A stretch of 64,000 nucleotides of DNA from Eledone cirrhosa (lineage: Eukaryota), in assembly GCA_964016885.1 (NCBI GenBank), contig OZ024740.1:15376001-15440000 (forward strand), in the 5' to 3' direction. Under the pieces are notes generated by a model, which saw only the letters and a program-made list of their open reading frames with translations, had not been told where the DNA came from and ran no database searches. Position numbers and translations under genes: made by a program. Of this stretch, positions 9,001 to 63,173 are shown one piece after another. The stretch's first letter is position 1; each line of letters starts with the position of its first letter.

Positions 9001-10047
9001 AGAGTCTGTCACCTAGCGGTACACAGCCAAAACACAGCTCTGACCTAGGTATAGAGTCTGTCACCTAGCGGTACACAGCCAAAACACAGCTCTGACTTAG
9101 GTGTACAGTCTCTCACCTAGCAGTACCTAGTTGAAACACCGCTCTGACCTAGGTGTAGAATCTATCACCTAGCGGTACACAGCCAAAACACAGCTCTGAC
9201 TTAGGTGTAGAGTCTCTCACCTAGAGGTACACAACCAAAACACAGCTCTGACCTAGGTATAGTGTATGTCACCTAGCGGTACACAGCCGAAACACATCTC
9301 TGACCTAGGTGTACAGGCTGTCACCTAGCGGTACACAGCCGAAACACAGCTCTGACCTAGGTGTACAGTCTGTCACATAGCGGTACACAGCCGAAACACA
9401 GCTCTGACCTAGGTATAGAGTCTGTCACCTAGCGGTACACAGCCGAAACACAGCTCTGACCTAGTATAGAATCTGTCACCTAGCGGTACACAACCAAAAC
9501 ACAGCTCTGACCTAGGTATAGAATATCTCACCTAGCGGTACACAGCCGAAACACAGCTCTGACCTAGGTGTACAGTCTGTCACCTAGCGGTACACAGCCG
9601 AAACACAGCTCTGACCTAGCTGTAGAGTCTATCACTAGCAGTACACAGCCAAAACACAGCTCTGACCTAGGTGTAGAGTCTGTCACCTAGCGGTACACAG
9701 CCAAAACACAGCTCTGACCTAGGTGTAGAATCTATCACTAGCGGTACACAGCCAAAACACAGCTCTGACCTAGGTGTACAGTCTGTCACCTAGCGGTACA
9801 CAGCCGAAACACAGCTCTGACCTAGCTGTAGAGTCTATCACTAGCGGTACACAGCCAAAACACAGCTCTGACCTAGGTGTAGAGTCTGTCACCTAGCGGT
9901 ACACAGCCAAAACACAGCTCTGACCTAGCTGTAGAGTCTATCACTAGCGGTACACAGCCAAAACACAGCTCTGACCTAAGTGTAGAGTCTGTCACCTAGC
10001 GGTGCACAGCCGAAACACAGCTCTGACCTAAGTCTACAGTCTGTCAG
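1..10047. repeat. 52-bp tandem satellite, ~190 copies, runs off the left edge
   Basis: Unit GCTCTGACCTAGGT(G/A)TA(G/C)AGTCTGTCACCTAGCGGTACACAGCC(A/G)AAACACA recurs every 52 nt with scattered substitutions. Confidence 0.98.
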
Positions 10048-10574: not shown

Positions 10575-11779
10575 TGAATAGTATGGTATGGTGGGACAAT
10601 AGACTTAAACTTAAACTTAAAGAACAATTAGAAGACAGCAACCTCTTAACCCTGATAATGTACTCCCGCTACGTTGATGATATAAACATCGTAGTAAAAA
10701 CACGCCCACTAGAGAACAGTCAGGAATTAGAGAAAAACACCATGGAAAGCATCCAGCAAATAGCTAACTCCATCCACCAGAGTATTAGAGTTACTATAGA
10801 CTACCCAAGCAAACACCCCAACCATCGATTACCTGTACTAGACACAGAGCTCTGGTTAGAAACCATTAATAACAAAAACAAATCCTCCATTCCCATTATG
10901 CCAAACCCATGACTTCCAAATATCTGATCCAACGAAACTCATCTGTTTCGGACCATACCAAAATCAACATACTGATTGCGGATTTGGTACGGGTGATGAG
11001 AAACGTCTCCCGCATGTGCAACCCCGAAGAACTAGAGAGACACATACAACACTTCATCCACCGTATGCAGTTCTCTGGCTACAATCAGAGTACATAGAGG
11101 AGCCAGAACCAAATGGGAAAAAATAGTAAATAATGATACAAATGGGACCTGCCCCTTGTATAGGAGCAAATTTTGGAATAGAATAGAAAGAACTAGGAAT
11201 AAGGTTAATAGAATAAACTCATGGTATGATAGCAATAAATACCAGAGTGTAATGTTCATTAATACAACCCCTAGAGGTGAATTAGCTAACAAATTTAGAA
11301 GGGCGCTAGATAAACATAAACTCAATATTAAGATAGTAGAAAGACCAGGTACCTCCATAAAAACACTTATGAGCAATACTTTTCAAAAACCTCGCTGTAT
11401 AGATAGGAAATGTATAATCTGTAAACTAAGCCCCCATATTAACTGTAAAACTAGAAATGTAGTGTATAGCATAAGATGTACTGAAGGACAATGTAGAGAC
11501 ACAAATATAGTGTACATAGGTGAGACACCTCGTAGTATAGGGGAACGGTTAAATGAACACTGGCGAGACCTTCAAGATAGTAAAGAATCATCTGTACTCT
11601 ACCAACATGCTAAAATAGAACATAAGGGCAAATTAGAGAACATAGAAATAAAAATAGAATCTACACACAGAAAAGACGCAATGTTTAGACAAATCACAGA
11701 GGCAATAAACATAAATGAACTCCAACTAAAATTAAATAGAAAACATGAGTGGAATAGCAACATCACAACTTACAATTAA
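10575..11779 (+). pseudogene. Frameshifted PLE RT/GIY-YIG polyprotein remnant
   Basis: Three consecutive ORF pieces (to 10912, 10909-11097, 11156-11779) in different frames carry successive RT, thumb and GIY-YIG motifs. Confidence 0.85.
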
Positions 11780-11971
11780 GGACAAAATGAAAACACATAC
11801 GCACATAGAACAAACAACCAACCTGTAACATGTAAATAAACAAATAAATAAACAAATATAAACACACACAGATATCCGGATGTAACACAAACTAAGCACA
11901 CAACACACACAAAAACAAGATGGCGTAGGACAGAACAAAGGAGAGGCACAAAAACAAAGAAAGAATCCCCA

Positions 11972-12014
11972 GTCACTGAAGAGGTCACAGAATGTGTGAC
12001 GAAAGAACTTTGAC
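11972..12014 (+). ncRNA. Minimal type I hammerhead ribozyme motif in the PLE 3' pLTR
   Basis: GTCA-CTGAAGA-G-GTCACA(GAATG)TGTGAC-GAAAG-AA-CTT-TGAC; atypical CUU triplet. Confidence 0.65.
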
Positions 12015-12219
12015 AATATATGAACAACTGTCCAGTTGTGGAACCAACCAACCAACCGGAAATTTATAAATTCTTAAATTTATAAATTTAATTTATAATA
12101 AATTGAAGTGAAAGCAACTGGTGCGTGTGTTTCTTATTGGCAACATAACCCTCCCAAAGTATAACAATATCGGTTTCAACACACGTTTTCAGATAAAAAT
12201 CTTGTTAAACAAATTCAGA

Positions 12220-12265
<46 letters not shown>

Positions 12266-12270
<5 letters not shown>

Positions 12271-12816
12271 TAGCAAGATTCTTTATCTGAAAACGTGTGT
12301 TGAAACCGATATTGTTATGCTTTGGGAGGGTCATGTTGCCAATAAGAAACACACTCACCAGTTGCTTTCACTTCAATTTATTATAATAAATTTATAAATT
12401 TAGGAATTTATAAATTTCCGGTTGGTTGGTTGGTTCCACAACCAGATGGTTGTTTATATGTTGTCAAAGTTCTTTCGTCACACATTCTGTGACCTCTTCA
12501 GTCACTGGGGATTCTTTTCTTTGTTTTTGTGCCTCTCCTTTGTTCTGTCCTACGCCATCTTGTTTCTGTGTGTGTGTTGTGTGCTCAGTCTGCGCATGCG
12601 CCACATCCGGGTGTCTGTGTGTGTTTATATTCGTTTATTTATTTGTTTATTTACATGTTACAGGTTGGTTGTTTGTTCTATGTGCGTGTGTGTTTTCATT
12701 TTGTCCTTAATTGTAAGTTGTGATGTTGCTGTTCCATTCATGTTTTCTATTTAATTTTGGTTGTAATTCTTTTATGCCTATTGCCTCTGTGATTTATCTA
12801 AACATTGCGTCTTTTA
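12266..12816 (-). mobile_element. Second, diverged 3' fragment of the same PLE in opposite orientation
   Basis: Reverse complement of ~11670-12215 with several substitutions and indels; HHR copy at ~12463-12505. Confidence 0.9.
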
Positions 12817-12849
12817 TATGTATATATATATCTAGGGCGGGTAAAATTC

Positions 12850-43265: not shown

Positions 43266-43272
<7 letters not shown>
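42752..43272. mobile_element. Diverged ~320-bp retrozyme-like element: one monomer (-) joined to a partial inverted copy (+)
   Basis: Shares AGAGCGGTTGCCGGTC..GCAGAAATT..TGCTCTGAAATAGCGATATATA and CTGTATG..CATTT(C/T)GAAGACCT..CGCTAT with the 310-bp unit; inverted arms 42752-42902 and 43082-43234; in (TA)n. Confidence 0.8.
42880..42922 (-). ncRNA. Type I hammerhead, U3:A8 core variant
   Basis: Reverse complement: GCT-TTGATAA-GTAC(CAATCA)GTAC-GAAAC-AGAGCTCT-GTC-AGC. Confidence 0.78.
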
Positions 43273-43324
<52 letters not shown>

Positions 43325-43329
<5 letters not shown>

Positions 43330-43493
43330 GTTATGTAATAAACAACATAATATAAGTATTTCATTTACCAGTGGTTTCTTGAAACCAACCAAAATTGCTT
43401 TCATTCATCAGAATTCTGATGAATGAAAGCAATTTTGGTTGCTTTCATGAAACCACTGGTAAATGAAATACCTATCTTATGTTGTTTATTACA

Positions 43494-43502
<9 letters not shown>
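43325..43502. mobile_element. ~180-bp fold-back element of two head-to-head hammerhead-bearing ends
   Basis: Near-perfect palindrome centred on GAATTC (43411-43416); + arm ATT-CTGATGA-ATGAAAGCAA(TTTTGG)TTGCTTTCAT-GAAACC-ACT-GGTA-AAT; between TA tracts. Confidence 0.8.
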
Positions 43503-43539
<37 letters not shown>

Positions 43540-43540
<1 letters not shown>

Positions 43541-44583
43541 ATTAAAATACTGGAGCGTGTTGGAGTTAAACACCCTCTTCGTATTATAGAAATGACAGTA
43601 AAAGGTATAGCTCAATGTAATTAAACAGAGCCGAAGAATTATGAAAATAAAACAAAGAAGCCTTCAATACATCAAAAGTCTTTATTAGCCAACAATGTTT
43701 CGTCCTATTAAGGACTCATCAGGGCAGATGTTTATATTTTTCGTCCTATTAAGGACTCATCATGTAAGATGTTTATATTTTTGTACCATCATAATTTTGG
43801 GTATTGTACAATTTATATTTTTTCTCACCTTCTCTGTAACTCTATATGAATTGATTTGTTAACTTACATGCCATTATATATTATATATTATTATATTATT
43901 ATTATAGTATTATTGTGACATCTATATTGTTTGTGTAAATTAACCGGAGATTATCTATTATATTATATTATATATTATGTAATTATATAGTTTATTATAT
44001 ATTATATGTGTTACTTTTAATCATTCCATTACTTCATGTATATTAGAAATACGTATTATTATTATATTTATTCCTATTATGCTTATTTATATTTAAACTC
44101 TTAATAAGGTTTAATTTGTCCTGTTAATGATGGATATGTGTATTGATGTATGTGTATATGTGCGTACGTGTGCGTACATATATACATATGTATATTGTGC
44201 CTTTTAATCTTAATTTTTAATTTTAATTTTAATATTGTTACAAGTATATTATATTATATTATATTGTATTACATATAGTACTATAATTCCCGCTCTATAT
44301 AACCACCTTTGTTTAGCTCTAGGTTTTTTTTGCTTTGGACTATATTTGTAATATGGTTCAAAATGTTATCCACCTCCTTAGTGATTTTTATTATATATTT
44401 TTACCCATAATCTTCCAATACTTTAGTGTATGTACACTCCATATTCTTCGGAGTTTTTGGCTTGTATTGGCCGATAGTACTTCTTGTGGTTTTAATTGCC
44501 CTGATGAGTCCTTAATAGGACGAAACATTGTTGGCTAATAAAGACTTTTGATGTATTGAAGGCTTCTTTGTTTTATTTTCATA
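43540..44583. mobile_element. Non-coding AT-rich PLE-derived insert with inverted hammerhead-bearing ends
   Basis: 43640-43726 is the reverse complement of 44497-44583; HHR GCC-CTGATGA-GTCC(TTAATA)GGAC-GAAAC-ATT-GTT-GGC at 44498-44535 (+) and 43687-43726 (-). Confidence 0.8.
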
Positions 44584-46609: not shown

Positions 46610-47370
46610 ATAATGAAATACAAAGTAGTTTCAGGTCTTAAAATCCAATGATGACTGTGTCCACGTGATTCCGTGTACCCAGTGCCATGATCTCATCAGA
46701 CAGCTTCCTACATAATAAGGTTACGTTCTCGAGACAATCCAAATTGAAGCGACAAGGGAACGGGCAAAAATGATGATCTTAAAGCTTTCACCCGTTCCCT
46801 TGCGAGCCCCAATCAGACTCCACAACTTTGCGCAGGCGCAAATGTAACGGAAGCTGCCCAGCTATCCAACTATTTACCGCCCAAATACAGTAAACTAGCC
46901 TAGAGAGCCACCCCCCACCCCCACCCAGGCCGGTAAAGTTACATGGTCCCAGATGCCAGCCAACTAAATTGTAGTCCACTGCCAGTCTAGTAGCAACCGA
47001 CTGGAACTCTGAGGTAATAGCAGGCTATGATTTTCAATCTGTTTTAATACTACCCCCCTCTCCCCCAACTATGTATGGCTAATAGAACTGACCATCACCC
47101 GTGAACACACACACGCACATATATATATATATATATGTTAAGTATTTCCGTGGGAAAGGTAAAGGAAAGAAGAGTGCTCTATGTATAGTACAGAGCTATT
47201 TAATAATGTAATAAACAACATAATATAATTATTCCATTCCCCAAGGTTTCACGAAGTTAGACGCTTCTAACATCATCTGATGAACGATATCAGCCGTTTC
47301 TGTTAGAATCGTCTAACTATTGTGTTGTTTATTAAATAAATACATGTATATATATATATATAAATACATG

Positions 47371-47428
<58 letters not shown>

Positions 47429-47432
<4 letters not shown>

Positions 47433-50400
47433 TATAGACATAGAATATTCGAAAATATTCTGTATGTTTATAATAAACATTTTGAAGACCTAATCGCTAT
47501 AGAATAGAATACGTCACGTATTACAATTAGATTCTCGATAAAAGCAAGGGAAGTAATCTACGCGTTTCATTCTTGTTAGAATTCATCAGGACTACATATC
47601 CAGTGCTTTTATCGAGAATGACACAGCTAGAGACTTATAGAATACTTAGCTGTGTACTGGAACTGGTTTGAAAGAGCGGTTGCCGGTCCGGCAGAAATTA
47701 GAAATTGGAATAAATGCTCTGAAATAGCGATATATATGTGAGTATAGACATAGAATATTCGAAAATATTCTGTATGTTTATAATAAACATTTTGAAGACC
47801 TAATCGCTATAGAATAGAATACGTCACGTATTACAATTAGATTCTCGATAAAAGCAAGGGAAGTAATCTACGCGTTTCATTCTTGTTAGAATTCATCAGG
47901 ACTACATATCCAGTGCTTTTATCGAGAATGACACAGCTAGAGACTTATAGAATACTTAGCTGTGTACTGGAACTGGTTTGAAAGAGCGGTTGCCGGTCCG
48001 GCAGAAATTAGAAATTGGAATAAATGCTCTGAAATAGCGATATATATGTGAGTATAGACATAGAATATTCGAAAATATTCTGTATGTTTATAATAAACAT
48101 TTTGAAGACCTAATCGCTATAGAATAGAATACGTCACGTATTACAATTAGATTCTCGATAAAAGCAAGGGAAGTAATCTACGCGTTTCATTCTTGTTAGA
48201 ATTCATCAGGACTACATATCCAGTGCTTTTATCGAGAATCTAATTGTAATACGTGACGTATTCTATTCTATAGCGATTAGGTCTTCAAAATGTTTATTAT
48301 AAACATACAGAATATTTTCGAATATTCTATGTCTATACTCACATATATATCGCTATTTCAGAGCATTTATTCCAATTTCTAATTTCTGCCGGACCGGCAA
48401 CCGCTCTTTCAAACCAGTTCCAGTACACAGCTAAGTATTCTATAAGTCTCTAGCTGTGTCATTCTCGATAAAAGCACTGGATATGTAGTCCTGATGAATT
48501 CTAACAAGAATGAAACGCGTAGATTACTTCCCTTGCTTTTATCGAGAATCTAATTGTAATACGTGACGTATTCTATTCTATAGCGATTAGGTCTTCAAAA
48601 TGTTTATTATAAACATACAGAATATTTTCGAATATTCTATGTCTATACTCACATATATATCGCTATTTCAGAGCATTTATTCCAATTTCTAATTTCTGCC
48701 GGACCGGCAACCGCTCTTTCAAACCAGTTCCAGTACACAGCTAAGTATTCTATAAGTCTCTAGCTGTGTCATTCTCGATAAAAGCACTGGATATGTAGTC
48801 CTGATGAATTCTAACAAGAATGAAACGCGTAGATTACTTCCCTTGCTTTTATCGAGAATCTAATTGTAATACGTGACGTATTCTATTCTATAGCGATTAG
48901 GTCTTCAAAATGTTTATTATAAACATACAGAATATTTTCGAATATTCTATGTCTATACTCACATATATATCGCTATTTCAGAGCATTTATTCCAATTTCT
49001 AATTTCTGCCGGACCGGCAACCGCTCTTTCAAACCAGTTCCAGTACACAGCTAAGTATTCTATAAGTCTCTAGCTGTGTCATTCTCGATAAAAGCACTGG
49101 ATATGTAGTCCTGATGAATTCTAACAAGAATGAAACGCGTAGATTACTTCCCTTGCTTTTATCGAGAATCTAATTGTAATACGTGACGTATTCTATTCTA
49201 TAGCGATTAGGTCTTCAAAATGTTTATTATAAACATACAGAATATTTTCGAATATTCTATGTCTATACTCACATATATATCGCTATTTCAGAGCATTTAT
49301 TCCAATTTCTAATTTCTGCCGGACCGGCAACCGCTCTTTCAAACCAGTTCCAGTACACAGCTAAGTATTCTATAAGTCTCTAGCTGTGTCATTCTCGATA
49401 AAAGCACTGGATATGTAGTCCTGATGAATTCTAACAAGAATGAAACGCGTAGATTACTTCCCTTGCTTTTATCGAGAATCTAATTGTAATACGTGACGTA
49501 TTCTATTCTATAGCGATTAGGTCTTCAAAATGTTTATTATAAACATACAGAATATTTTCGAATATTCTATGTCTATACTCACATATATATCGCTATTTCA
49601 GAGCATTTATTCCAATTTCTAATTTCTGCCGGACCGGCAACCGCTCTTTCAAACCAGTTCCAGTACACAGCTAAGTATTCTATAAGTCTCTAGCTGTGTC
49701 ATTCTCGATAAAAGCACTGGATATGTAGTCCTGATGAATTCTAACAAGAATGAAACGCGTAGATTACTTCCCTTGCTTTTATCGAGAATCTAATTGTAAT
49801 ACGTGACGTATTCTATTCTATAGCGATTAGGTCTTCAAAATGTTTATTATAAACATACAGAATATTTTCGAATATTCTATGTCTATACTCACATATATAT
49901 CGCTATTTCAGAGCATTTATTCCAATTTCTAATTTCTGCCGGACCGGCAACCGCTCTTTCAAACCAGTTCCAGTACACAGCTAAGTATTCTATAAGTCTC
50001 TAGCTGTGTCATTCTCGATAAAAGCACTGGATATGTAGTCCTGATGAATTCTAACAAGAATGAAACGCGTAGATTACTTCCCTTGCTTTTATCGAGAATC
50101 TAATTGTAATACGTGACGTATTCTATTCTATAGCGATTAGGTCTTCAAAATGTTTATTATAAACATACAGAATATTTTCGAATATTCTATGTCTATACTC
50201 ACATATATATCGCTATTTCAGAGCATTTATTCCAATTTCTAATTTCTGCCGGACCGGCAACCGCTCTTTCAAACCAGTTCCAGTACACAGCTAAGTATTC
50301 TATAAGTCTCTAGCTGTGTCATTCTCGATAAAAGCACTGGATATGTAGTCCTGATGAATTCTAACAAGAATGAAACGCGTAGATTACTTCCCTTGCTTTT

Positions 50401-50850
50401 ATCGAGAATCTAATTGTAATACGTGACGTATTCTATTCTATAGCGATTAGGTCTTCAAAATGTTTATTATAAACATACAGAATATTTTCGAATATTCTAT
50501 GTCTATACTCACATATATATCGCTATTTCAGAGCATTTATTCCAATTTCTAATTTCTGCCGGACCGGCAACCGCTCTTTCAAACCAGTTCCAGTACACAG
50601 CTAAGTATTCTATAAGTCTCTAGCTGTGTCATTCTCGATAAAAGCACTGGATATGTAGTCCTGATGAATTCTAACAAGAATGAAACGCGTAGATTACTTC
50701 CCTTGCTTTTATCGAGAATCTAATTGTAATACGTGACGTATTCTATTCTATAGCGATTAGGTCTTCAAAATGTTTATTATAAACATACAGAATATTTTCG
50801 AATATTCTATGTCTATACTCACATATATATCGCTATTTCAGAGCATTTAT

Positions 50851-50856
<6 letters not shown>
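47429..50856. mobile_element. Retrozyme-like array 1: 310-bp hammerhead unit, ~2.6 copies (-) then ~8.5 copies (+); 11 HHRs
   Basis: Exact 310-nt periodicity; HHRs start at 47553, 47863, 48173 (-) and 48485+310n, n=0-7 (+); flanked by (TA)n. Confidence 0.93.
48485..48527 (+). ncRNA. Type I hammerhead ribozyme (representative of array 1); predicted cleavage after GUA at 48521
   Basis: GTAGTC-CTGATGA-ATTCT(AACA)AGAAT-GAAAC-GC-GTA-GATTAC; stem I extended by ATTCTCGATAAAAGCA/TGCTTTTATCGAGAAT (16 bp). Confidence 0.92.
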
Positions 50857-50888
<32 letters not shown>

Positions 50889-51025
50889 TAAAAGCCGGAA
50901 ACAGAAGTTGCCCTCGGCCTCTGTAGGTCTTTATCTTATTTTTATAAACTATCTTTATAGCATTTCTGCGCTTGGGCACTTCTTTTTAACACCATGTTTA
51001 CCTGTTTTTTCTTCCTTAATTATTA

Positions 51026-51078
51026 CTGCCTGATGAGGTCCCAGCCAATAATGGCTGTCACTGAAATATATATAGCAG
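51026..51078 (+). ncRNA. Type I hammerhead motif in a ~340-bp solo pLTR-like insert (50885-51227) between TA tracts
   Basis: CTGC-CTGATGA-GGT..CAGCCA(ATAA)TGGCTG..ACT-GAAA-TATATA-TA-GCAG. Confidence 0.75.
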
Positions 51079-51254
51079 AGAATTAGAATAAACGAAGCCA
51101 ACTTTAACATATTTGACTTACACTTAATATTCTACATTACTCCGGAGTAAACAAACCAGCCTGCGCACCTCGTTGAGTGCGCCAACCTGTATACTGAGGT
51201 GTCGGTAAACAACCAGTATATACTCAATATATATATATATATATATATATTACC

Positions 51255-52604
51255 CTATTCCCAATTCCCCCGTCTTCGTCGACTCTGTAGCTAGGACCAC
51301 GATTTCGAAACCCATTCTCTTCACATGGCCTCCCACTTCATCCAGTGGATATCCCCCCACCCCGATCCAAGCTGCTCTCACCCGCGCCCGTGAAACCGAC
51401 CGTTCAACAGACCCCTCACCTCACCAGCACCCTCCCAATACATGCCTTCCTTTCCCTCTCACCTATCACCCCATCACTTCTCGCATCTTTCCTAACCTAC
51501 CTATCACCGCATTTAAGCGCGCCCGTAACCCCCGCGACCTCCTGGTACGCAGTTCCTTCTCGACCTATCCTATGACACCACCCGGCTCTCATCCTTGTTC
51601 TCGTCTCCGCTGTAACACTTGTCCTTTCATTTCCACCCTCACCACTCTTACAGGCCCTAACGGGTCTTTCCTTATCCGCCATTCCTTCACTTGCACCTCC
51701 ACCCAAGTTGTCTATGCCACCCGGTGTTCTCTTTGATACATCGGACAAACGGGACGCCGTTTGGCGGACCGAATTGCTGAACATTTGAGGGACATATGAC
51801 TCAGTTTGGATACTTCCGTTGCCCGTCATTTCCGTTTCCCAGGTCACTCTTCCTTATATGTCTCAGTCCTGGGTGTCCTTTTACATCACGGATCGCAGAA
51901 CTCGCGCACCAGGACTGAACAGGGTCTGATTTACAGCCTTGGGCCCTGTTTCCCTCACGGACTCAACTCCCCTCCCCAATTTCTTTAATACCCCGGCCGT
52001 TATCACACACGCGCTTGTACATTCACCCTTAGATTCCTATAGCTCTCTTATGATCAGAAACTTCTCTTACCGCTAATACAGATCAACAAAATACGCACAC
52101 TGCTTTTCCCTTCACAGCTCTGTATACACACACACACACACACACACACACTTATATTAACATACTTTTGCTTACAACTTCGTACTTACAAGCACACACA
52201 GATACTCTTTTACTTACATATAGACACGCATATCCTCTTAGCTTCGTAGGACGTATAATAACACACACACAAAGACCCCCTCGCCCATGCGCATACGCAC
52301 GTGCACAAGTATAGCTCTATATACAAAATAGTTTTTTTTTCCATTTCAGGTAGACGCGCTCCATCATCCACTTTTCTAAAACATAAATCATACACAAAAC
52401 ACCAGCACCAACAATTTTGCAAGAGATGTCAACATGAATGGACCTGTTATTTTTATCTAAAGACATTTTTTCCAATTCCAATCCGCCCATCCCTTCAATT
52501 TTTCTTATTCTTTCTTTTGATGAAGGACTAGCGTCCGAAACGTTAAGACCCTCTTCCTGCTATTTCAAACGTTAACCTGATATATTCCTTCCATATACTG
52601 TACT
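51255..52604 (+). mobile_element. Decayed PLE 3' portion (GIY-YIG remnant and pLTR with hammerhead)
   Basis: ~51685-51988 translates FTCTSTQVVYATRCSL*YIGQTGRRLADRIAEHLRDI*..VARHF..GHS..EQGLIYSLG..PHGLN; HHR TCTT-TTGATGA-A-GGAC(TAGC)GTCC-GAAAC-GTT-AAGA at 52513-52548. Confidence 0.82.
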
Positions 52605-52685
52605 ATAATTTTGAGATAGAGCGTCCGTGATGTTTGCTCTAATCTGATTAGAGCAAACATCACGGACGCTCTATCTCAAAATTAT
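52605..52685. repeat. Perfect 40-bp-arm palindrome with 1-nt spacer
   Basis: ATAATTTTGAGATAGAGCGTCCGTGATGTTTGCTCTAATC-T-GATTAGAGCAAACATCACGGACGCTCTATCTCAAAATTAT. Confidence 0.95.
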
Positions 52686-52867
52686 TTTTGAAAAGCATTA
52701 GAAATGCGCAACCGGTAAAACTTAAAACCAAAACTGAATACTAACCAATACTATTACTAATTCTCACTTATTCCTAATTAAACTATTTTTCACTGTGAAC
52801 AATTTGTCAGCATTTTCTTTTCCGTTTACCAATATATCATAACTTGTGTGTTACACCTCTATTCTTT

Positions 52868-52898
<31 letters not shown>

Positions 52899-52914
52899 GG
52901 TACGTTTCTTGTGG

Positions 52915-52940
<26 letters not shown>

Positions 52941-52945
<5 letters not shown>

Positions 52946-54201
52946 AGATCAAAAGATGGTTAAAGGAGTTCAATATATTTTATTATGCGCATTTCAAAAA
53001 CAAACATCATCAAACAATAATATTTGTGTTTTCATCAGATAAAACAGGAGAACATGATATGAAGGCTAAAAAAACACTTGTTGATAGTGCAGTTTTAAAT
53101 CAACATATGAAAAGTGGTTTTAGATTGATGTGTGATATTGGGAAAAATATTTTATTTAGAGAGGGGGGGAGAGAAAAGGATGAAAAGGGAAGGAGATGAG
53201 AGGGAGAGATGGGTGATAGAGAGAAAGAGATAGTTTTTATAACAGAGAGGAGATACAAGCACACACAGATACTCTTTTACTTACATATAGACACGCATAT
53301 ATAAAAACTCTAACTTCACATTATTTTTCTCAAATCCTATACATAAACTTTTTCTCTTTGCTAATTTTAAAATTCCTACATTTCTCCTTTTGAATATTCA
53401 CCCACAATTATTATTTTTTTTTTTCTCTCTATCTCCATACATAATCTCCCTTCGTTATTATTTTTTTCTCTCTATCTCCATACATAATTTCCCTTCGTTA
53501 ATTTTCAAATTCCTTTAATTTATACATTATCTTCCAACGGTTCCCAACCTCTCTATATTAAAACATTATATCTTTTTCTCAGTTATAAAAACTATCTCTT
53601 TCTCTCTATCACCCATCTCTCCCTTTCCACCTTCACTCTCATCTCCTCCCCTTTTTTTTTTTTTTTTTCATCCTTTCCACCCCCACCCCTCCCTAAATAT
53701 AATATATTTTTTCCTCGCACATATCCTCCCTTCGTTAATTTTCAAAATTTTTAATTTATACAGTATCTTCCAACGGTTTTCAACCCCTCTATATAAAATA
53801 TATCTCCTCTCTGTTATAAAAACTATCTCTTTCTCTCTATCACCCATCTCTCCCTCTCATCTCCTTCCCTTTTCATCCTTTTCTCTCCCCCCCTCTCTAA
53901 ATAAAATATTTTTCCCAATATCACACATCAATCTAAAACCACTTTTCATATGTTGATTTAAAACTGCACTATCAACAAGTGTTTTTTTAGCCTTCATATC
54001 ATGTTCTCCTGTTTTATCTGATGAAAACACAAATATTATTGTTTGATGATGTTTGTTTTTGAAATGCGCATAATAAAATATATTGAACTCCTTTAACCAT
54101 CTTTTGATCTTATATTATGCATACTCCAGTCCCACAAACTGTAGAGTGCTTCTTATCCGATATCTGCATTGCTTTATTGTACTACAATAAAACTCACCTC
54201 C

Positions 54202-54203
<2 letters not shown>
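52941..54203. mobile_element. Non-coding PLE-derived insert with ~315-bp inverted ends, each with a hammerhead
   Basis: 52941-53255 is the reverse complement of ~53801-54116; HHR TTTTAT-CTGATGA-(long stem II)-GAAA-TGCGCA-TA-ATAAAA at 54012-54078 (+) and 52978-53044 (-); right arm runs ~85 nt further. Confidence 0.82.
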
Positions 54204-54267
<64 letters not shown>

Positions 54268-54289
54268 ACAAGAAACGTACCATTAAGAG

Positions 54290-54985
54290 ACAGTAAACAG
54301 ACCATAAGTAAAGCATGAAGATAACAAACAGGTAAGTTGTAAACATTTGATAATGACGTAGTAAACATATAATAATGATATAGTAGACAGTAAACACAGT
54401 AAACATACTGTAACAGACAGTAAAATTGATAGTAAACACACAGTAAACATACGATAAAGAGACTATAAAACATTCTGTGAAAATGTAGTAAACATGTAGC
54501 AAACATACAGTAAACATGTAGTAAACATGTAGTAAACATGTAGTAAACATGTAGTAAACACGCAGTAAGCATGCAGTAAACATGTAGAAAACATGCAGTA
54601 AACATGTAGCGAACGTGCTGTAAACATGCAATAAACATGTATTAAATATGCAGTAAACATGTAGTAAACATGTAGTAAACATGCAGTGGATATGTAGTAA
54701 CCGTGTAACGAGCGTGCAGTGAGAATGTAGTAAACATGTATTAAACATGTAGTAAATATGTAGTAAATATGCAATAGACATGTAGTAAACGTGTAGCAAG
54801 CGTGCAGTGAGAATGTATTAAACATGTATTAAACATGCAGTAAACATGTAGTTAACATGTAGTAAACGTGTAGCGAGCGTGCATTGAGAGTGTAGTAAAC
54901 ATGTAGTAAACATGCAATGGACATGTAGTAAACGTGTAATGAGTGTGCAGTGCAGGGAGAATGTAGTAAACATGTAGTAGCATAG
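54290..54985. repeat. Degenerate 11-bp (AGTAAACATGT)n repeat
   Basis: Directly visible. Confidence 0.85.
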
Positions 54986-55439
54986 TATAAAGAAGCCTTA
55001 AAGTAAGGCTGAAGAAAGGAAAGCTGTGTATTTGTATTGATGTGATAGAGTGTCGACGGTGGATGTTGTAACTATGGTAACGTAAGGGTCATTGATAAAT
55101 ATATAAGACATGGTGGAAAGGGAGGGAGAAGGGGGGAGGAAGGATGGAGGGAAGGGGGAGAGGGAGGAGAGGAAGGAGAGGAAGGAGAGTGAATCAACGA
55201 AGGAAGGAAATAAGATAGGAAAGAGGTGGAAGAAAGAAAAATAATAGGATGTAAGAGAGTAGAGGAAGGAAGGAGGGAGAATGACTGAAGAAAGCAAAGA
55301 GGAAGGAAAGAGGGAAAGTGTATGATGGAAGGGGGAGAAGGCGGAGGAAGGGGAGGAGTGAAAGAAAGAAAGCAAATAAAGGGGAGGGGTGGGAATACTT
55401 CAATCGTTCTGACTGACTACATTATCGATTATATCTGAT

Positions 55440-56890
55440 GAGGAGGTGGTGTGTGGTGTGTGTAGTGTGTAGAGGTGGTGTGGTGTGTGTAGTGTGTGTA
55501 GTGTGTGTGTAGAGGTGGTGTGTAGTGTGTGGATGTGTGTGGTGTGTGTGGTGTGTGGTGTGTGGATGTGTGTGGTGTGTTGATGTGTGTGGTGTGTGGT
55601 GTGTGGATGTGTGTGGATGTGTGTAGTGTGTGTGTAGAGGTGGTGTGTAGTGTGTGGTGTGTGGATGTGTGTGTAGTGTGTAGAGGTGGTGTGTAGTGTG
55701 TGTGTAGAGGTGGTGTGTAGTGTGTGGTGTGTGGATGTGTGTGGTGTGTGGATGTGTGTGGTGTGTGGTGTGTGGTGTGTGGTGAGTGGATGTGTGTGGT
55801 GTGTGGTGTGTGGATGTGTGTGGTGTGTGGATGTGTATGGTGTGTGGTGTGTGGATGTGTGTGGTGTGTGGTGTGTGGTGTGTGGTTGTGTGTGGATGTG
55901 TGTGGTGTGTGGTGTGTGGTGTGTGGTTGTGTGTGGATGTGTGTGGTGTGTGGTGTGTGGTGTGTGGATGTGTGTGGTGTGTGGATGTGTGTGTGGATGT
56001 GTGTGTGGATGTGTGTGTATGTGGTGTGTGGTGTGTGGTGTGTGGATGTATGTGGTGTATAGATGTGTGTGGTGTGTGGTGTGTGGTTGTGTGTGGATGT
56101 GTGTGGTGTGTGGTGTGTGGTGTGTGGATGTGTGTGGATGTGTGTAGTGTGTGTAGTGTGTGGTGTGTGGTGTGTGGATGTGTGTGGTGTGTGGATGTGT
56201 GTGGATGTGTGGTGTGTGGATGTGTGTGGTGTGTGGATGTGTGTGGATGTGTGTGGATGTGTGTGGTGTGTGGATGTGTGTGTAGTGTGTGGTGTGTGGT
56301 GTGTGGATGTTTGGTGTGTGGTGTGTGGATGTGTGTGTAGTGTGTGGTGTGTGGATGTGTGTGGTGTGTGGTGTGTGTAGTGTGTGGTGTGTAGTGTGTG
56401 GTGTGTGGATGTGTAGTGTGTGGTGTGTGGATATGTGTGGTGTGTGGATGTGTGTGGTGTGTGGATGTGTGTGTAGTGTGTGGTGTGTGGTGTGTGGTGT
56501 GTGGATGTGTGTGGTATGTGGTGTGTGGTGTGTGGATGTGTGTGTAGTGTGTGGTGTGTGGTGTGTGGTGTGTGGATGTGGGTGTGTAGTGTGTGGTGTG
56601 TAGATATGTGTGGTGTGTGGATGTGTGTGGATGTGTGGATGTGTGTGTAGTGTGTGGTGTGTGGTGTGTGGATGTGTGTGGTGTGTGTTGTGTGTGGTGT
56701 GTGGATGTGTGTGGTGTGTGGTGTGTGGTGTGTGGATGTGTGTAGTGTGTGTGGTGTGGATGTGTGTGTGGTGTGTGGTGTGTGTGGATGTGTGTGTAGT
56801 GTGTAGGGTGTGTAGTGTGTGTGTGGATGTGTGTAGAGGTGTGTAGAGGTGTGTGGATGTGGTGTGTGTAGTGTGTGTGTGTGGAGGTTT
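55440..56890. repeat. (GT/GGT/GGAT) low-complexity tract
   Basis: Directly visible. Confidence 0.93.
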
Positions 56891-57050
56891 ATGTATGTGC
56901 TGGTGTACATGTATGTGTGTGTATGTGTATAGGTGTAACGGTGGTTGCAGTGTGTATGTGTGTGTGTCGGAGTGGAAACGTATATGTGTGTTTGTGAGTG
57001 TGAACGTATGGGAGTGTCTGTGTGTGGTACCTATGTATGTATGTATGTAT

Positions 57051-57570
57051 ATATCAGAGTTTTCCATCTCCTAGAATTCTGCCTTGACAAAGGCTAAGGG
57101 GTCATCTCTCCCGGTGATTTTGGATGGCCATTGACACTTAAGAGCTCCTTTGCCCTTTGACAGGTTTTGTTTTTAGTCCTGCAGGATGTCCAAAGTCACC
57201 CTCCTCACCAAGAAACCTTGGTGGGGTTGCCAGTTTAGTCGCCAATGACCCGACCATGGGACAGGTAGTACTGGGATACATGTTACCAGTAGCACCAACT
57301 GGTGACCTGATTTTGTGCAGTGCCTTTGCTCCCTATAAAAGCTTCACGGCACAGGCATTGCTTTATATCTGGAGATCTCTCTGCACTTGTCGTCACATGG
57401 TACCATGAGCCCAGCACTATGTGTCAATAATTGTCACAAGTGTAGTGTTTGTACCAGAGTTTTCAAGTCGCTGGCTGGACTAAAAAGTCTCACTCGTTCA
57501 GCGCATCGGTAGAGGTTCTCCTACATATAAAGTAGTGGCCGTACTCGAAAACGAGTTGGCAGCCACCATG
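57051..57570 (+). mobile_element. Colinear copy of the ~520-bp RTE-derived bipartite non-autonomous element
   Basis: 3' part encodes CTRVFKSLAGLKS (cf. RTE finger CARHFRSLAGLKS) and ends GGCCGTACTCGAAAACGAGTTGGCAGCCACCATGT like the RTE 3' end at 16830. Confidence 0.8.
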
Positions 57571-57573
57571 TAG

Positions 57574-57605
<32 letters not shown>

Positions 57606-57634
57606 TGTAGTATATATATATATATGTATATATG

Positions 57635-60600
57635 TATGTGAATATAGACATAGAATATTCGAAAATATTCTGTATGTTTATAATAAACATTTTGAAGACC
57701 TAATCGCTATAGAATAGAATACGTCACGTATTACAATTAGATTCTCGATAAAAGCAAGGGAAGTAATCTACGCGTTTCATTCTCGTTAGAAATCATCAGG
57801 ACTACATATCCAGTGCTTTTATCGAGAATGACACAGCTAGAGACTTATAGAATACTTAGCTGTGTACAGGAACTGGTTTGAAAGAGCGGTTGCCGGTCCG
57901 GCAGAAATTAGAAATTGGAATAAATGCTCTGAAATAGCGATATATATGTGAATATAGACATAGAATATTCGAAAATATTCTGTATGTTTATAATAAACAT
58001 TTTGAAGACCTAATCGCTATAGAATAGAATACGTCACGTATTACAATTAGATTCTCGATAAAAGCAAGGGAAGTAATCTACGCGTTTCATTCTCGTTAGA
58101 AATCATCAGGACTACATATCCAGTGCTTTTATCGAGAATGACACAGCTAGAGACTTATAGAATACTTAGCTGTGTACAGGAACTGGTTTGAAAGAGCGGT
58201 TGCCGGTCCGGCAGAAATTAGAAATTGGAATAAATGCTCTGAAATAGCGATATATATGTGAATATAGACATAGAATATTCGAAAATATTCTGTATGTTTA
58301 TAATAAACATTTTGAAGACCTAATCGCTATAGAATAGAATACGTCACGTATTACAATTAGATTCTCGATAAAAGCAAGGGAAGTAATCTACGCGTTTCAT
58401 TCTCGTTAGAAATCATCAGGACTACATATCCAGTGCTTTTATCGAGAATGACACAGCTAGAGACTTATAGAATACTTAGCTGTGTACAGGAACTGGTTTG
58501 AAAGAGCGGTTGCCGGTCCGGCAGAAATTAGAAATTGGAATAAATGCTCTGAAATAGCGATATATATGTGAATATAGACATAGAATATTCGAAAATATTC
58601 TGTATGTTTATAATAAACATTTTGAAGACCTAATCGCTATAGAATAGAATACGTCACGTATTACAATTAGATTCTCGATAAAAGCAAGGGAAGTAATCTA
58701 CGCGTTTCATTCTCGTTAGAAATCATCAGGACTACATATCCAGTGCTTTTATCGAGAATGACACAGCTAGAGACTTATAGAATACTTAGCTGTGTACAGG
58801 AACTGGTTTGAAAGAGCGGTTGCCGGTCCGGCAGAAATTAGAAATTGGAATAAATGCTCTGAAATAGCGATATATATGTGAATATAGACATAGAATATTC
58901 GAAAATATTCTGTATGTTTATAATAAACATTTTGAAGACCTAATCGCTATAGAATAGAATACGTCACGTATTACAATTAGATTCTCGATAAAAGCAAGGG
59001 AAGTAATCTACGCGTTTCATTCTCGTTAGAAATCATCAGGACTACATATCCAGTGCTTTTATCGAGAATGACACAGCTAGAGACTTATAGAATACTTAGC
59101 TGTGTACAGGAACTGGTTTGAAAGAGCGGTTGCCGGTCCGGCAGAAATTAGAAATTGGAATAAATGCTCTGAAATAGCGATATATATGTGAATATAGACA
59201 TAGAATATTCGAAAATATTCTGTATGTTTATAATAAACATTTTGAAGACCTAATCGCTATAGAATAGAATACGTCACGTATTACAATTAGATTCTCGATA
59301 AAAGCAAGGGAAGTAATCTACGCGTTTCATTCTCGTTAGAAATCATCAGGACTACATATCCAGTGCTTTTATCGAGAATGACACAGCTAGAGACTTATAG
59401 AATACTTAGCTGTGTACAGGAACTGGTTTGAAAGAGCGGTTGCCGGTCCGGCAGAAATTAGAAATTGGAATAAATGCTCTGAAATAGCGATATATATGTG
59501 AATATAGACAGTTCCTGTACACAGCTAAGTATTCTATAAGTCTCTAGCTGTGTCATTCTCGATAAAAGCACTGGATATGTAGTCCTGATGATTTCTAACG
59601 AGAATGAAACGCGTAGATTACTTCCCTTGCTTTTATCGAGAATCTAATTGTAATACGTGACGTATTCTATTCTATAGCGATTAGGTCTTCAAAATGTTTA
59701 TTATAAACATACAGAATATTTTCGAATATTCTATGTCTATATTCACATATATATCGCTATTTCAGAGCATTTATTCCAATTTCTAATTTCTGCCGGACCG
59801 GCAACCGCTCTTTCAAACCAGTTCCTGTACACAGCTAAGTATTCTATAAGTCTCTAGCTGTGTCATTCTCGATAAAAGCACTGGATATGTAGTCCTGATG
59901 ATTTCTAACGAGAATGAAACGCGTAGATTACTTCCCTTGCTTTTATCGAGAATCTAATTGTAATACGTGACGTATTCTATTCTATAGCGATTAGGTCTTC
60001 AAAATGTTTATTATAAACATACAGAATATTTTCGAATATTCTATGTCTATATTCACATATATATCGCTATTTCAGAGCATTTATTCCAATTTCTAATTTC
60101 TGCCGGACCGGCAACCGCTCTTTCAAACCAGTTCCTGTACACAGCTAAGTATTCTATAAGTCTCTAGCTGTGTCATTCTCGATAAAAGCACTGGATATGT
60201 AGTCCTGATGATTTCTAACGAGAATGAAACGCGTAGATTACTTCCCTTGCTTTTATCGAGAATCTAATTGTAATACGTGACGTATTCTATTCTATAGCGA
60301 TTAGGTCTTCAAAATGTTTATTATAAACATACAGAATATTTTCGAATATTCTATGTCTATATTCACATATATATCGCTATTTCAGAGCATTTATTCCAAT
60401 TTCTAATTTCTGCCGGACCGGCAACCGCTCTTTCAAACCAGTTCCTGTACACAGCTAAGTATTCTATAAGTCTCTAGCTGTGTCATTCTCGATAAAAGCA
60501 CTGGATATGTAGTCCTGATGATTTCTAACGAGAATGAAACGCGTAGATTACTTCCCTTGCTTTTATCGAGAATCTAATTGTAATACGTGACGTATTCTAT

Positions 60601-62568
60601 TCTATAGCGATTAGGTCTTCAAAATGTTTATTATAAACATACAGAATATTTTCGAATATTCTATGTCTATATTCACATATATATCGCTATTTCAGAGCAT
60701 TTATTCCAATTTCTAATTTCTGCCGGACCGGCAACCGCTCTTTCAAACCAGTTCCTGTACACAGCTAAGTATTCTATAAGTCTCTAGCTGTGTCATTCTC
60801 GATAAAAGCACTGGATATGTAGTCCTGATGATTTCTAACGAGAATGAAACGCGTAGATTACTTCCCTTGCTTTTATCGAGAATCTAATTGTAATACGTGA
60901 CGTATTCTATTCTATAGCGATTAGGTCTTCAAAATGTTTATTATAAACATACAGAATATTTTCGAATATTCTATGTCTATATTCACATATATATCGCTAT
61001 TTCAGAGCATTTATTCCAATTTCTAATTTCTGTCGGACCGGCAACCGCTCTTTCAAACCAGTTCCTGTACACAGCTAAGTATTCTATAAGTCTCTAGCTG
61101 TGTCATTCTCGATAAAAGCACTGGATATGTAGTCCTGATGATTTCTAACGAGAATGAAACGCGTAGATTACTTCCCTTGCTTTTATCGAGAATCTAATTG
61201 TAATACGTGACGTATTCTATTCTATAGCGATTAGGTCTTCAAAATGTTTATTATAAACATACAGAATATTTTCGAATATTCTATGTCTATATTCACATAT
61301 ATATCGCTATTTCAGAGCATTTATTCCAATTTCTAATTTCTGCCGGACCGGCAACCGCTCTTTCAAACCAGTTCCTGTACACAGCTAAGTATTCTATAAG
61401 TCTCTAGCTGTGTCATTCTCGATAAAAGCACTGGATATGTAGTCCTGATGATTTCTAACGAGAATGAAACGCGTAGATTACTTCCCTTGCTTTTATCGAG
61501 AATCTAATTGTAATACGTGACGTATTCTATTCTATAGCGATTAGGTCTTCAAAATGTTTATTATAAACATACAGAATATTTTCGAATATTCTATGTCTAT
61601 ATTCACATATATATCGCTATTTCAGAGCATTTATTCCAATTTCTAATTTCTGCCGGACCGGCAACCGCTCTTTCAAACCAGTTCCTGTACACAGCTAAGT
61701 ATTCTATAAGTCTCTAGCTGTGTCATTCTCGATAAAAGCACTGGATATGTAGTCCTGATGATTTCTAACGAGAATGAAACGCGTAGATTACTTCCCTTGC
61801 TTTTATCGAGAATCTAATTGTAATACGTGACGTATTCTATTCTATAGCGATTAGGTCTTCAAAATGTTTATTATAAACATACAGAATATTTTCGAATATT
61901 CTATGTCTATATTCACATATATATCGCTATTTCAGAGCATTTATTCCAATTTCTAATTTCTGCCGGACCGGCAACCGCTCTTTCAAACCAGTTCCTGTAC
62001 ACAGCTAAGTATTCTATAAGTCTCTAGCTGTGTCATTCTCGATAAAAGCACTGGATATGTAGTCCTGATGATTTCTAACGAGAATGAAACGCGTAGATTA
62101 CTTCCCTTGCTTTTATCGAGAATCTAATTGTAATACGTGACGTATTCTATTCTATAGCGATTAGGTCTTCAAAATGTTTATTATAAACATACAGAATATT
62201 TTCGAATATTCTATGTCTATATTCACATATATATCGCTATTTCAGAGCATTTATTCCAATTTCTAATTTCTGCCGGACCGGCAACCGCTCTTTCAAACCA
62301 GTTCCTGTACACAGCTAAGTATTCTATAAGTCTCTAGCTGTGTCATTCTCGATAAAAGCACTGGATATGTAGTCCTGATGATTTCTAACGAGAATGAAAC
62401 GCGTAGATTACTTCCCTTGCTTTTATCGAGAATCTAATTGTAATACGTGACGTATTCTATTCTATAGCGATTAGGTCTTCAAAATGTTTATTATAAACAT
62501 ACAGAATATTTTCGAATATTCTATGTCTATATTCACATATATATCGCTATTTCAGAGCATTTATTCCA
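57635..62568. mobile_element. Retrozyme-like array 2: 310-bp hammerhead unit, ~6 copies (-) then ~9.9 copies (+); 16 HHRs
   Basis: HHRs start at 57763+310n, n=0-5 (-) and 59579+310n, n=0-9 (+); GTAGTC-CTGATGA-TTTCT(AACG)AGAAT-GAAAC-GC-GTA-GATTAC. Confidence 0.93.
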
Positions 62569-63173
62569 GTATATATGTATGTATGTATGTAGTATATATA
62601 TATATATGTATATATGTATGTATGTATGTAGTATATATATATATATGTATATATGTATGTATGTATACATCCATGGTCCTCTGCTGTAAAGAAGTGGCAG
62701 TCATCATATATATATATATATGCATGTATGTATGAATGATATGAATGTATGTGTATTTTTGTATGTATATATGGATGTATATATGTATGTATATATGTAT
62801 GTATATATGTATGTATATAACTGGTGGCATGTAGGGTATAGTGTATGGTGATTTTATGCAATGAGTGGTTTGCGTGTTTGCTTGTGTATAAGTGTATGTG
62901 TATTCCTGTATATATGTATGTGTGTGTGTCGTGAATATACACCACTGAGAAAACAGATATGCCGGTGTTGTCGAAGTAAAATCCCTGGTAATATTAATTC
63001 CATCTGTATTATTCAGACGTTCCCCTACCCCAGCGACCATCAGACTCTGTAGTATACCAGCAGTAGATCACCGTTGGAAACCTGTAACCAACGACGTTAT
63101 TGTTCACAATATGCCATGCATAAGATTATAACAAATAAATTCAGTAATCAACGACGCTATTGTTCACAATATG

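Follow-up and report, generated by a model that had tools for sequence, protein, structure and literature searches.

A 310-bp hammerhead repeat of Eledone cirrhosa as a candidate young retrozyme with the insertion anatomy of Penelope-like elements

Animal non-LTR retrozymes (LTR, long terminal repeat) are non-coding tandem repeats with units of 150–450 bp, a GC content below 50% and one type I hammerhead ribozyme per unit, and they coexist with Penelope-like elements (PLEs) (PMC7229834). From newt satellite 2 onward, the spread of animal hammerhead repeats has been a matter of hypothesis: either PLE enzymes reverse-transcribe circular RNA into tandem cDNA, as PMC7229834 proposes, or the repeats undergo local satellite-type amplification. 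The tandem and inverted structures of PLEs likewise lack an explanation. Here, we describe a 310-bp hammerhead repeat that forms two arrays in a 64,000-nucleotide stretch of the Eledone cirrhosa genome (contig OZ024740.1, positions 15,376,001–15,440,000; hereafter “the window”) and that shares all of the above features with the animal retrozymes. We propose that it is a very young, non-autonomous animal non-LTR retrozyme inserted by a PLE protein, an explanation to which, taken as a whole, we assign a probability of about 0.65. That the repeat is a PLE-mobilised retrozyme of some kind is very likely indeed. The class is already known; this family is a very young new member of it.

Two further traits are shared with retrozymes described in the same source: a one-pair stem III with a palindromic tetraloop (axolotl HHR_Amex1) and a U-U pair at the base of stem II (HHR_Amex2), the latter present here in the common 287T haplotype. 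The main text of PMC7229834, however, describes neither a layout in two arms nor a tail nor priming sites at fixed positions, and the words “inverted” and “opposite” are absent from it; conversely, RNA and circles were shown for those retrozymes, whereas they are putative here. Vertebrate retrozymes (Li, Clavereau, Pollet 2026, 10.64898/2026.07.22.740005) are also described as non-autonomous hammerhead tandem repeats tied to PLEs. There, the tie consists of homology to the PLE pseudo-LTR (pLTR) and of co-occurrence, and local amplification is favoured; here, it is the insertion anatomy. Plant LTR retrozymes, as described in PMC7229834, have non-autonomy, a hammerhead and spread via circular RNA (putative in our case) in common with this family, but they carry a type III hammerhead in LTRs, a primer-binding site (PBS), a polypurine tract (PPT), a 4-bp target-site duplication and a Gypsy partner, in contrast to a type I hammerhead in tandem units. 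Endonuclease-bearing (EN+) PLEs, among them the Hydra clade, share the inverted 5′-truncated copy, the tail at one end, the (TA)n targets and two nearby internal starts of reverse transcription downstream of the hammerhead (PMC8557442, PMC11167929); unlike them, the present element has no open reading frame (ORF), and both of its arms are long concatemers of the 310-nt unit. Multicopy head-to-tail insertions are described for non-autonomous Chlamys elements, of a clade mostly without canonical hammerheads (PMC8557442). Our literature search, which left most subscription journals, Repbase/Dfam and the model figure S9 of PMC7229834 outside its scope, returned no paper on two-arm, tailed retrozyme concatemers.

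The unit has a GC content of 34.5% and was numbered from its predicted cleavage site, with U1 being the first base 3′ of that site (window position 48522) and U310 corresponding to position 48831. As the original prediction held, it is devoid of an ORF: the longest stop-free stretch in a concatemer of units spans 59 codons, and no ORF with reverse transcriptase (RT) and GIY-YIG domains, the criterion for an autonomous PLE, occurs there. Every unit carries the elements of a type I hammerhead: stem I (GUAGUC/GAUUAC, with 3-bp and 16-bp extensions), CUGAUGA, stem II and GAAAC-GC-GUA, with cleavage predicted after the GUA ending at position 48521. The core is numbered in the usual manner for hammerheads, which cleave according to the NUH rule. 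There are 27 such cores in the two window arrays, nine of them on the minus strand. Folding of the hammerhead domain supports the assignment (−32.4 kcal/mol, z −6.3). Rfam does not return the unit at gathering thresholds; its best model, Hammerhead_HH9, has an E of 0.0035, but its score of 23 bits falls below the cut-off, which is 52.

The type I elements thus stand, but the original prediction of a “complete” ribozyme in each copy does not. Stem III (ACGCGU) is a single base pair closed by the palindromic loop CGCG, which marks the ribozyme as one of the dimer-acting type. Indeed, the minimum-energy fold of a dimer is a double hammerhead in which the stem III palindromes pair with each other, and amphibian retrozyme hammerheads are reported to be weak cleavers in monomeric form but efficient ones in dimers (PMC7229834). 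Folded as a circle, the 310-nt monomer reaches −67.2 kcal/mol (z −4.6, 60 shuffles). Units of several sister families in the same genome retain stems I and II with altered letters; their stem III is mostly palindromic or near-palindromic, and C3-G8 has become U3-A8 in 6 of 10 aligned sequences.

The two window arrays (insertion 1, 47429–50856; insertion 2, 57635–62568; Table 1) measure 11.1 and 15.9 units, close to the ~11 and ~16 copies first estimated, and their flanks confirm that they are embedded in TA-rich microsatellite. They had been read as single tandem runs, however, and this proved incorrect: in each, a minus-strand arm is followed by a plus-strand arm in head-to-head order, such that their 5′ ends are joined at the centre and their 3′ ends face the microsatellite on either side. 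The inversion explains why Tandem Repeats Finder breaks each array into two. Insertion 1 shows no variation among its units; insertion 2 is distinguished from it by four sites present in both arms (127T, 211T, 287T, 295G) and by one sporadic change. These four differences and the unrelated flanks indicate that the arrays are independent insertions, and we rejected a segmental duplication as their origin because the flanks have no similarity.

Does this organization extend beyond the window? The absence of dispersed copies at other TA tracts had been named as part of the evidence that would refute such a family; in fact, exact junctions of U133–165 to TA number 1,029 genome-wide (control, 0). 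A 30-nt pattern spanning the cleavage site has 16,358 exact matches in the 3.0-Gb genome, corresponding to ~5 Mb, and its reversed control has none. Because the exact junction is present in only 10 of 20 loci recovered by a whole-unit search, the 1,029 junctions translate into ~2,000 loci; dividing the 16,358 units by ~9 per locus yields a similar number. The 1,219 matches of a pattern for the other arm end were rejected as a junction count, as the 131T haplotype matches it in every unit. Arrays of the 131T haplotype, which has a longer TA run where the short arm end is primed, lie at C1:105760989-105762499, 165008663-165010552 and 169700720-169703825.

We examined 58 loci: the two in the window, the 20 from the whole-unit search (chosen by identity to insertion 1) and the first 36 other junction matches on contig C1. 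Two head-to-head arms were present in 32 of the 36 junction-selected loci and in 18 of the 20 whole-unit loci. The remaining six comprise three single-armed loci (L044, L046, L139), two in which one arm exceeds the 7 kb fetched, i.e., more than 22 units (L062, L150), and one that was unreadable past the first arm. Among the first 100 matches to the 30-nt pattern, every cluster with both orientations has the head-to-head order. The loci consist of units alone between TA tracts, with no LTR organization (an assessment that did not include motif searches for PBS or PPT). A diverged subfamily with a 312-bp unit, ~94% identical, was also seen (L166:615-800; L047:1685-2578), one copy of it nested in the TA tract of the 3′ untranslated region (UTR) of an intact Hydra PLE.

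The ends of the arms were analyzed in 50 two-arm loci, L033 and L036 having been dropped because end extension failed there. The long-ended arm ends at U163–169 and the short-ended arm at U121–139, with 21 of 50 short ends at U130 and 17 at U139; as U131–139 is itself TA-like, the true end of the latter group is ambiguous. TA-type sequence follows both ends in all 50 loci, and the one-sided surplus, or tail, amounts to 26–40 nt. The long-end pattern was the selection criterion for 32 of these loci and is also carried by insertion 1, but the long/short split was seen as well in all 16 resolved cases among the 18 two-arm loci from the whole-unit search. Target-site duplications were unreadable within (TA)n; the flanks were inspected by eye. 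Neither end coincides with the ribozyme site, and priming was therefore internal. For comparison, PLE insertions are described as having an inverted 5′-truncated copy and a 30–40 bp tail on one side (PMC8557442, PMC3846280), and the tail of an Anolis PLE as reaching from one internal RT start site to a second (PMC11167929). The end positions of the unit arms match the one-sided PLE tail and the two Anolis start sites. The array ends bear the marks of Penelope-like insertion, which supports PLE mobilisation; together with the dispersal of such loci, this anatomy also supports the original prediction of a non-LTR retrozyme.

Where the arms meet, an insert of 1–16 nt is present in 10 of 50 centre junctions and absent from the other 40. 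Of the insert-free junctions, 27 of 40 overlap by at least 2 nt, as compared to a random expectation of 18%, and no pair of 5′ ends is common to two loci. The arm 5′ ends do not pile up at the cleavage site (0 of 100 at U1). Twelve of 100 fall at U13–22, a cluster that is suggestive only (scan p 0.02 with 10-nt windows, 0.31 with 25-nt windows). These features also bear on whether the loci could be artefacts. Perfect inverted repeats in TA tracts are difficult to assemble, and palindromic chimeric long reads might mimic them; alternatively, an ordinary satellite might carry a ribozyme-like motif by chance. Yet the arms are unequal, have two fixed and different end positions and meet at unique junctions, and both end types recur as TA-joined loose ends in contigs assembled from short reads (X1). 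Chance resemblance is countered by ribozyme stems kept in diverged sister families and by the reversed control (0 vs. 16,358). We consider either of these accounts barely credible.

The two arms of a locus agree in sequence. In 24 junction-selected loci that were nearly fully covered in both arms, there are 15 haplotypes with a chance match of 0.065, and the arms have the identical haplotype in 22 of them; no discordant site separates the arms in 28 of the 32 two-arm junction-selected loci. Identical arms and microhomology at the junctions would also be expected if the first cDNA had folded back and primed its own copying into the inverted arm, along the lines of a self-priming idea in PMC3846280, and the centre of insertion 1 does use a 16-bp inverted repeat. 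But a copy cannot exceed its template, and in 14 of 32 loci the tail-less, short-ended arm exceeds its partner in length (in L063, 18.9 vs. 3.2 units); the second arm is thus not a fold-back copy. Conversely, the tailed arm could not be copied from the tail-less one, and sporadic variants are mirrored in register in only 2 of 25 testable occurrences. This alternative, very improbable in our estimation, is largely refuted by the arm lengths. With fold-back set aside, the concordance means that the two target ends used either one and the same RNA as template or RNAs that came from a single dominant source; we think it a strong probability that one template haplotype primed both arms. Arm lengths (medians 3.0 and 4.9 units, the longest censored by fetch size) do not depart from an exponential distribution (Kolmogorov–Smirnov p 0.32).

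What kind of RNA served as this template? Among 558 units, the 552 crossings of the cleavage site are scar-free, save for one substitution in two units of L063. This, together with the lack of 5′ ends at U1, implies a template with no covalent break and makes it unlikely that cut monomers were copied by repeated jumps from one to the next. New variants are fixed along whole arrays. Sporadic variants (61 events, 3.5e-4 changes per base) behave differently: two are common to both arms, where inheritance of all of them from the template would predict up to ~17, and one is found again at another locus. Array-wide fixation and the rare sharing of sporadic variants suggest passage through a one-unit bottleneck. 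The substitutions within the ribozyme domain (U250–U28) point to a bottleneck that selects for the ribozyme: none of the 10 array-wide changes is damaging, compared to 18 of 19 sporadic changes and 188 of 267 (70%) of all those possible (binomial p 5e-6). Five of the ten lie at paired sites and keep a pair, and the rest fall at N7, the stem II base, loop II and an internal loop.

An unbroken passage over the cleavage site would be expected just as much if a PLE performed twin priming on an uncleaved linear multimer transcript, circles being rare or a by-product. The Anolis PLE, moreover, acted in vitro predominantly on unprocessed RNA (PMC11167929), and three mosaic loci (L146, L063, L137) fit a template of several units. 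A linear multimer would nevertheless need repeated one-unit passage to fix 15 haplotypes along the arrays of 24 loci. It also sits poorly with the 2 of 61 sporadic events shared between arms (the expectation of ~17 would fall if most arose after insertion), with centre junctions that no other locus repeats and with inherited variants that spare the ribozyme. We therefore regard a linear template as unlikely, and a monomer circle as probably the usual one.

A different possibility is that a short PLE-type insertion came first and that its arms were expanded later in DNA, by unequal exchange, slippage or rolling-circle DNA amplification. Local amplification by unequal crossover is the process favoured for vertebrates (10.64898/2026.07.22.740005), and in the two longest loci some variants recur at uneven intervals (174C in 2 of 22 units of L062; 81A and 84A in 4 of 23 units of L150), which suggests later turnover of long arrays at the DNA level. 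Most loci, however, are multimeric in both arms at a divergence of 3.5e-4 per base, which leaves little time for thousands of expansions. Arms of less than one unit, which are unable to seed exchange, adjoin long ones; the pattern of selection acts on RNA structure; and the ends of Hydra PLEs in the same tracts are unamplified. Expansion in DNA as the general origin is accordingly improbable, and the arrays look born as concatemers.

Several observations weigh against insertion from a ribozyme-made circle. Multi-unit templates or conversion between arms are needed for the three mosaics: in L146, 204T occupies the same unit in each arm; in L063, 13C is present in both arms but off register, and a variant pair lies 7 units apart; and in L137, 276G marks all 7 units of one arm and 2 of 6 in the other. 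Together with L062 and L150, these mosaics offer a way of dating such templates or conversions. The arms of L033 differ at three sites, and one has an odd end at U115; this locus may be a composite. Arm concordance could also result if one source locus dominated the RNA pool of the cell, and the three single-armed loci lack the expected partner arm. The rule that separates damaging from tolerated substitutions is our own, and it excludes indels. In published experiments, the Anolis PLE used uncleaved RNA with the ribozyme dispensable (PMC11167929), and one of nine Xenopus retrozyme dimers cleaved (10.64898/2026.07.22.740005). Finally, the priming region finds no match in the 650 bases after and 500 bases before the ORFs of four intact Hydra families.

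With these reservations, we propose the following cycle for the circular template. An array would be transcribed as a multimer, in which adjacent hammerheads would pair via their palindromic stems III and release 310-nt monomers that a host ligase would close. To judge from folding and from the axolotl retrozymes, the lone hammerhead in such a circle would cut poorly, and hence the circle would last. A PLE endonuclease would then cut both (TA)n strands, and the two DNA ends would prime reverse transcription on the same RNA species near U165 and U130–139, the positions at which the arms are seen to end. Each RT would circle ~0.2 to more than 22 turns before a near-random stop, as the lengths and ends of the arms suggest. 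Joining of the two cDNA 3′ ends by microhomology would produce the head-to-head concatemers with a tail on one side that are observed. The protein of an Anolis PLE is reported to cleave and extend both strands of AT-rich DNA and has been modelled as a dimer (PMC11167929). We lean, if only slightly, toward a single event in which one ribozyme-made circle serves a dimer of PLE RT as the template for priming from the two ends of a (TA)n break, with the dimer rolling in both chromosome directions.

If this is true, the family would constitute genomic proof of retrotransposition of circular RNA in animals and would explain the origin of the inverted repeats and tails of PLEs. The insertion anatomy lends unusually direct support to the rolling-circle reverse transcription of a small circular RNA, a process that has been proposed but not demonstrated. 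Owing to the youth of the family (3.5e-4 changes per base within arrays), priming sites, junctions and haplotypes are preserved in its ~2,000 insertions. Two arms, a tail, haplotype concordance and selection on the ribozyme also make a simple computational test for other retrozyme families.

Which PLE might be the partner? The original prediction invoked mobilisation by a PLE RT with a GIY-YIG endonuclease, remnants of which occur in the window. The insertion anatomy speaks for the first part; the remnants have no comparable support as the mobiliser. The broken Neptune-type PLE in the window was rejected in that role, as it and 29 relatives (family copies ~70–80% identical to it in protein) share no sequence with the unit. 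A PLE of the Hydra clade that targets (TA)n is the likeliest partner class, though we hold this with little more than even confidence; Hydra was our first guess because the clade is described as targeting (TA)n and carrying canonical hammerheads (PMC8557442). One Hydra-clade PLE, whose ribozyme has 10,296 exact matches in the genome, itself has two arms, one tail of ~65 nt and a (TA)n target, and it carries RWR, DKT, CxCx5C, GIY-YIG and CxxC/CxH motifs (definitions from PMC8557442). Among the best 63 of 90,734 candidates in our ORF survey, at least four Hydra-clade families have open ORFs (713, 714, 719 and 758 codons; range 713–759; e.g., L131:1072-2862 and L132). The intact ORFs of these families thus place candidate proteins in the same genome beside a defined RNA with two mapped start sites.

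The sequence comparison with candidate partners covered partial 3′ UTRs of four Hydra families and the Neptune family, with Poseidon, Nematis and Naiad outside the search. One Hydra family matches the unit ribozyme at 25 of 28 nt, and the pLTR homology of the unit is limited to that stretch; the sole match in the flanks of the four families is a nested retrozyme copy in one Hydra UTR. Two candidate links were discarded: a pattern combining the unit tail motif with the Hydra ORF-start motif (11 matches, all of them, by their listed starts, copies of the family or of a sister family) and a resemblance of AGAGCA to two Hydra families, which is weak and misaligned with their ends. The Hydra families with open ORFs have long 3′ UTRs that bear microsatellite; previous descriptions of this clade drew on few families.

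The unit also occurs in other assemblies. In the X1 contigs, which look like host DNA, it is present with many variants, and 287T accounts for 77% of the depth. X4, X5 and X6, which come from three other organism labels and studies, each hold it as a single 340-nt contig at a depth of 18–34, with 2–3 differences, without 287T and as a single minority haplotype. A length of 340 would equal 310 + 30, as presumably arises from a closed cycle assembled with 31-letter words. As such contigs are equally expected from a circle or from a collapsed tandem, they are a lead rather than evidence of expression. They might hint at a circle that in addition survives or travels in RNA form, in the manner of a viroid, but this is a long shot.

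Table 1. Coordinates of the retrozyme insertions and related features in the window (units numbered from the predicted cleavage site).
Feature	Position	Strand	Remarks
Insertion 1, short-ended arm, 2.6 units	47429..48239	-	3′ end at U130, into (TA)n
Insertion 1, long-ended arm, 8.5 units	48224..50856	+	3′ end at U163-165; sequence identical to the other arm
Insertion 1, centre junction	48224..48239	.	16-bp overlap, the self-complementary stem I extension (U13-28 / U250-265)
Insertion 1, Penelope-type tail (U131-165)	50822..50856	+	Long end only
Hammerhead domain	48461..48549	+	16-bp extension, stem I, CUGAUGA 48491-48497, stem II, GAAA 48512-48515, stem III ACGCGU, predicted cleavage after A48521
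Reference 310-nt monomer, putative circular RNA	48522..48831	+	Cleavage site to cleavage site
Insertion 2, short-ended arm, 6.0 units	57635..59510	-	3′ end at U134; haplotype 127T 211T 287T 295G
Insertion 2, long-ended arm, 9.9 units	59509..62568	+	3′ end at U163; haplotype 127T 211T 287T 295G; 2-nt centre overlap
(TA)n target tract left of insertion 1	47336..47428	.	Resumes on the right at 50855-50883
TA-rich target tract left of insertion 2	57568..57634	.	Related 39-bp-period tract resumes at 62569-62666
Broken Neptune-type PLE	51259-52600	+	Zn-finger linker, GIY-YIG, minimal hammerhead near 52516
Broken Hydra-type PLE	23483-25780	-	Interrupted by minisatellites
Sister-family insertion, 67-82% identical	42700..43272	.	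Likewise two-armed, with the position of the long end shared; distinct hammerhead (U3-A8 core, palindromic stem III)

The sister insertion in the window belongs to a clan of hammerhead families that are 65–80% alike in U59–200 and end at the same two sites, with different ribozymes, several of them U3-A8. Other members lie at L036:9300-10000, L113, L126, L133:8022-8190 and L153–L161. The segment U166–197 is kept in all sister units and may be a protein-binding element. Further palindromic or two-arm insertions, mostly with hammerhead-like cores, were noted at 11659–12827, 43289–43538, 43640–44583, 52605–52685 and 52938–54118 of the window; the cores of the pair at 11659–12827 are convergent, unlike the others. 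Large minisatellites with periods of 52, 44 and 28 bp occupy positions 1–10046, 29226–32343 and 33472–34888. A 330-bp element is present twice in opposite orientation with 90% likeness, at 16096–16426 and at 57312–57639, the second copy being directly left of insertion 2.

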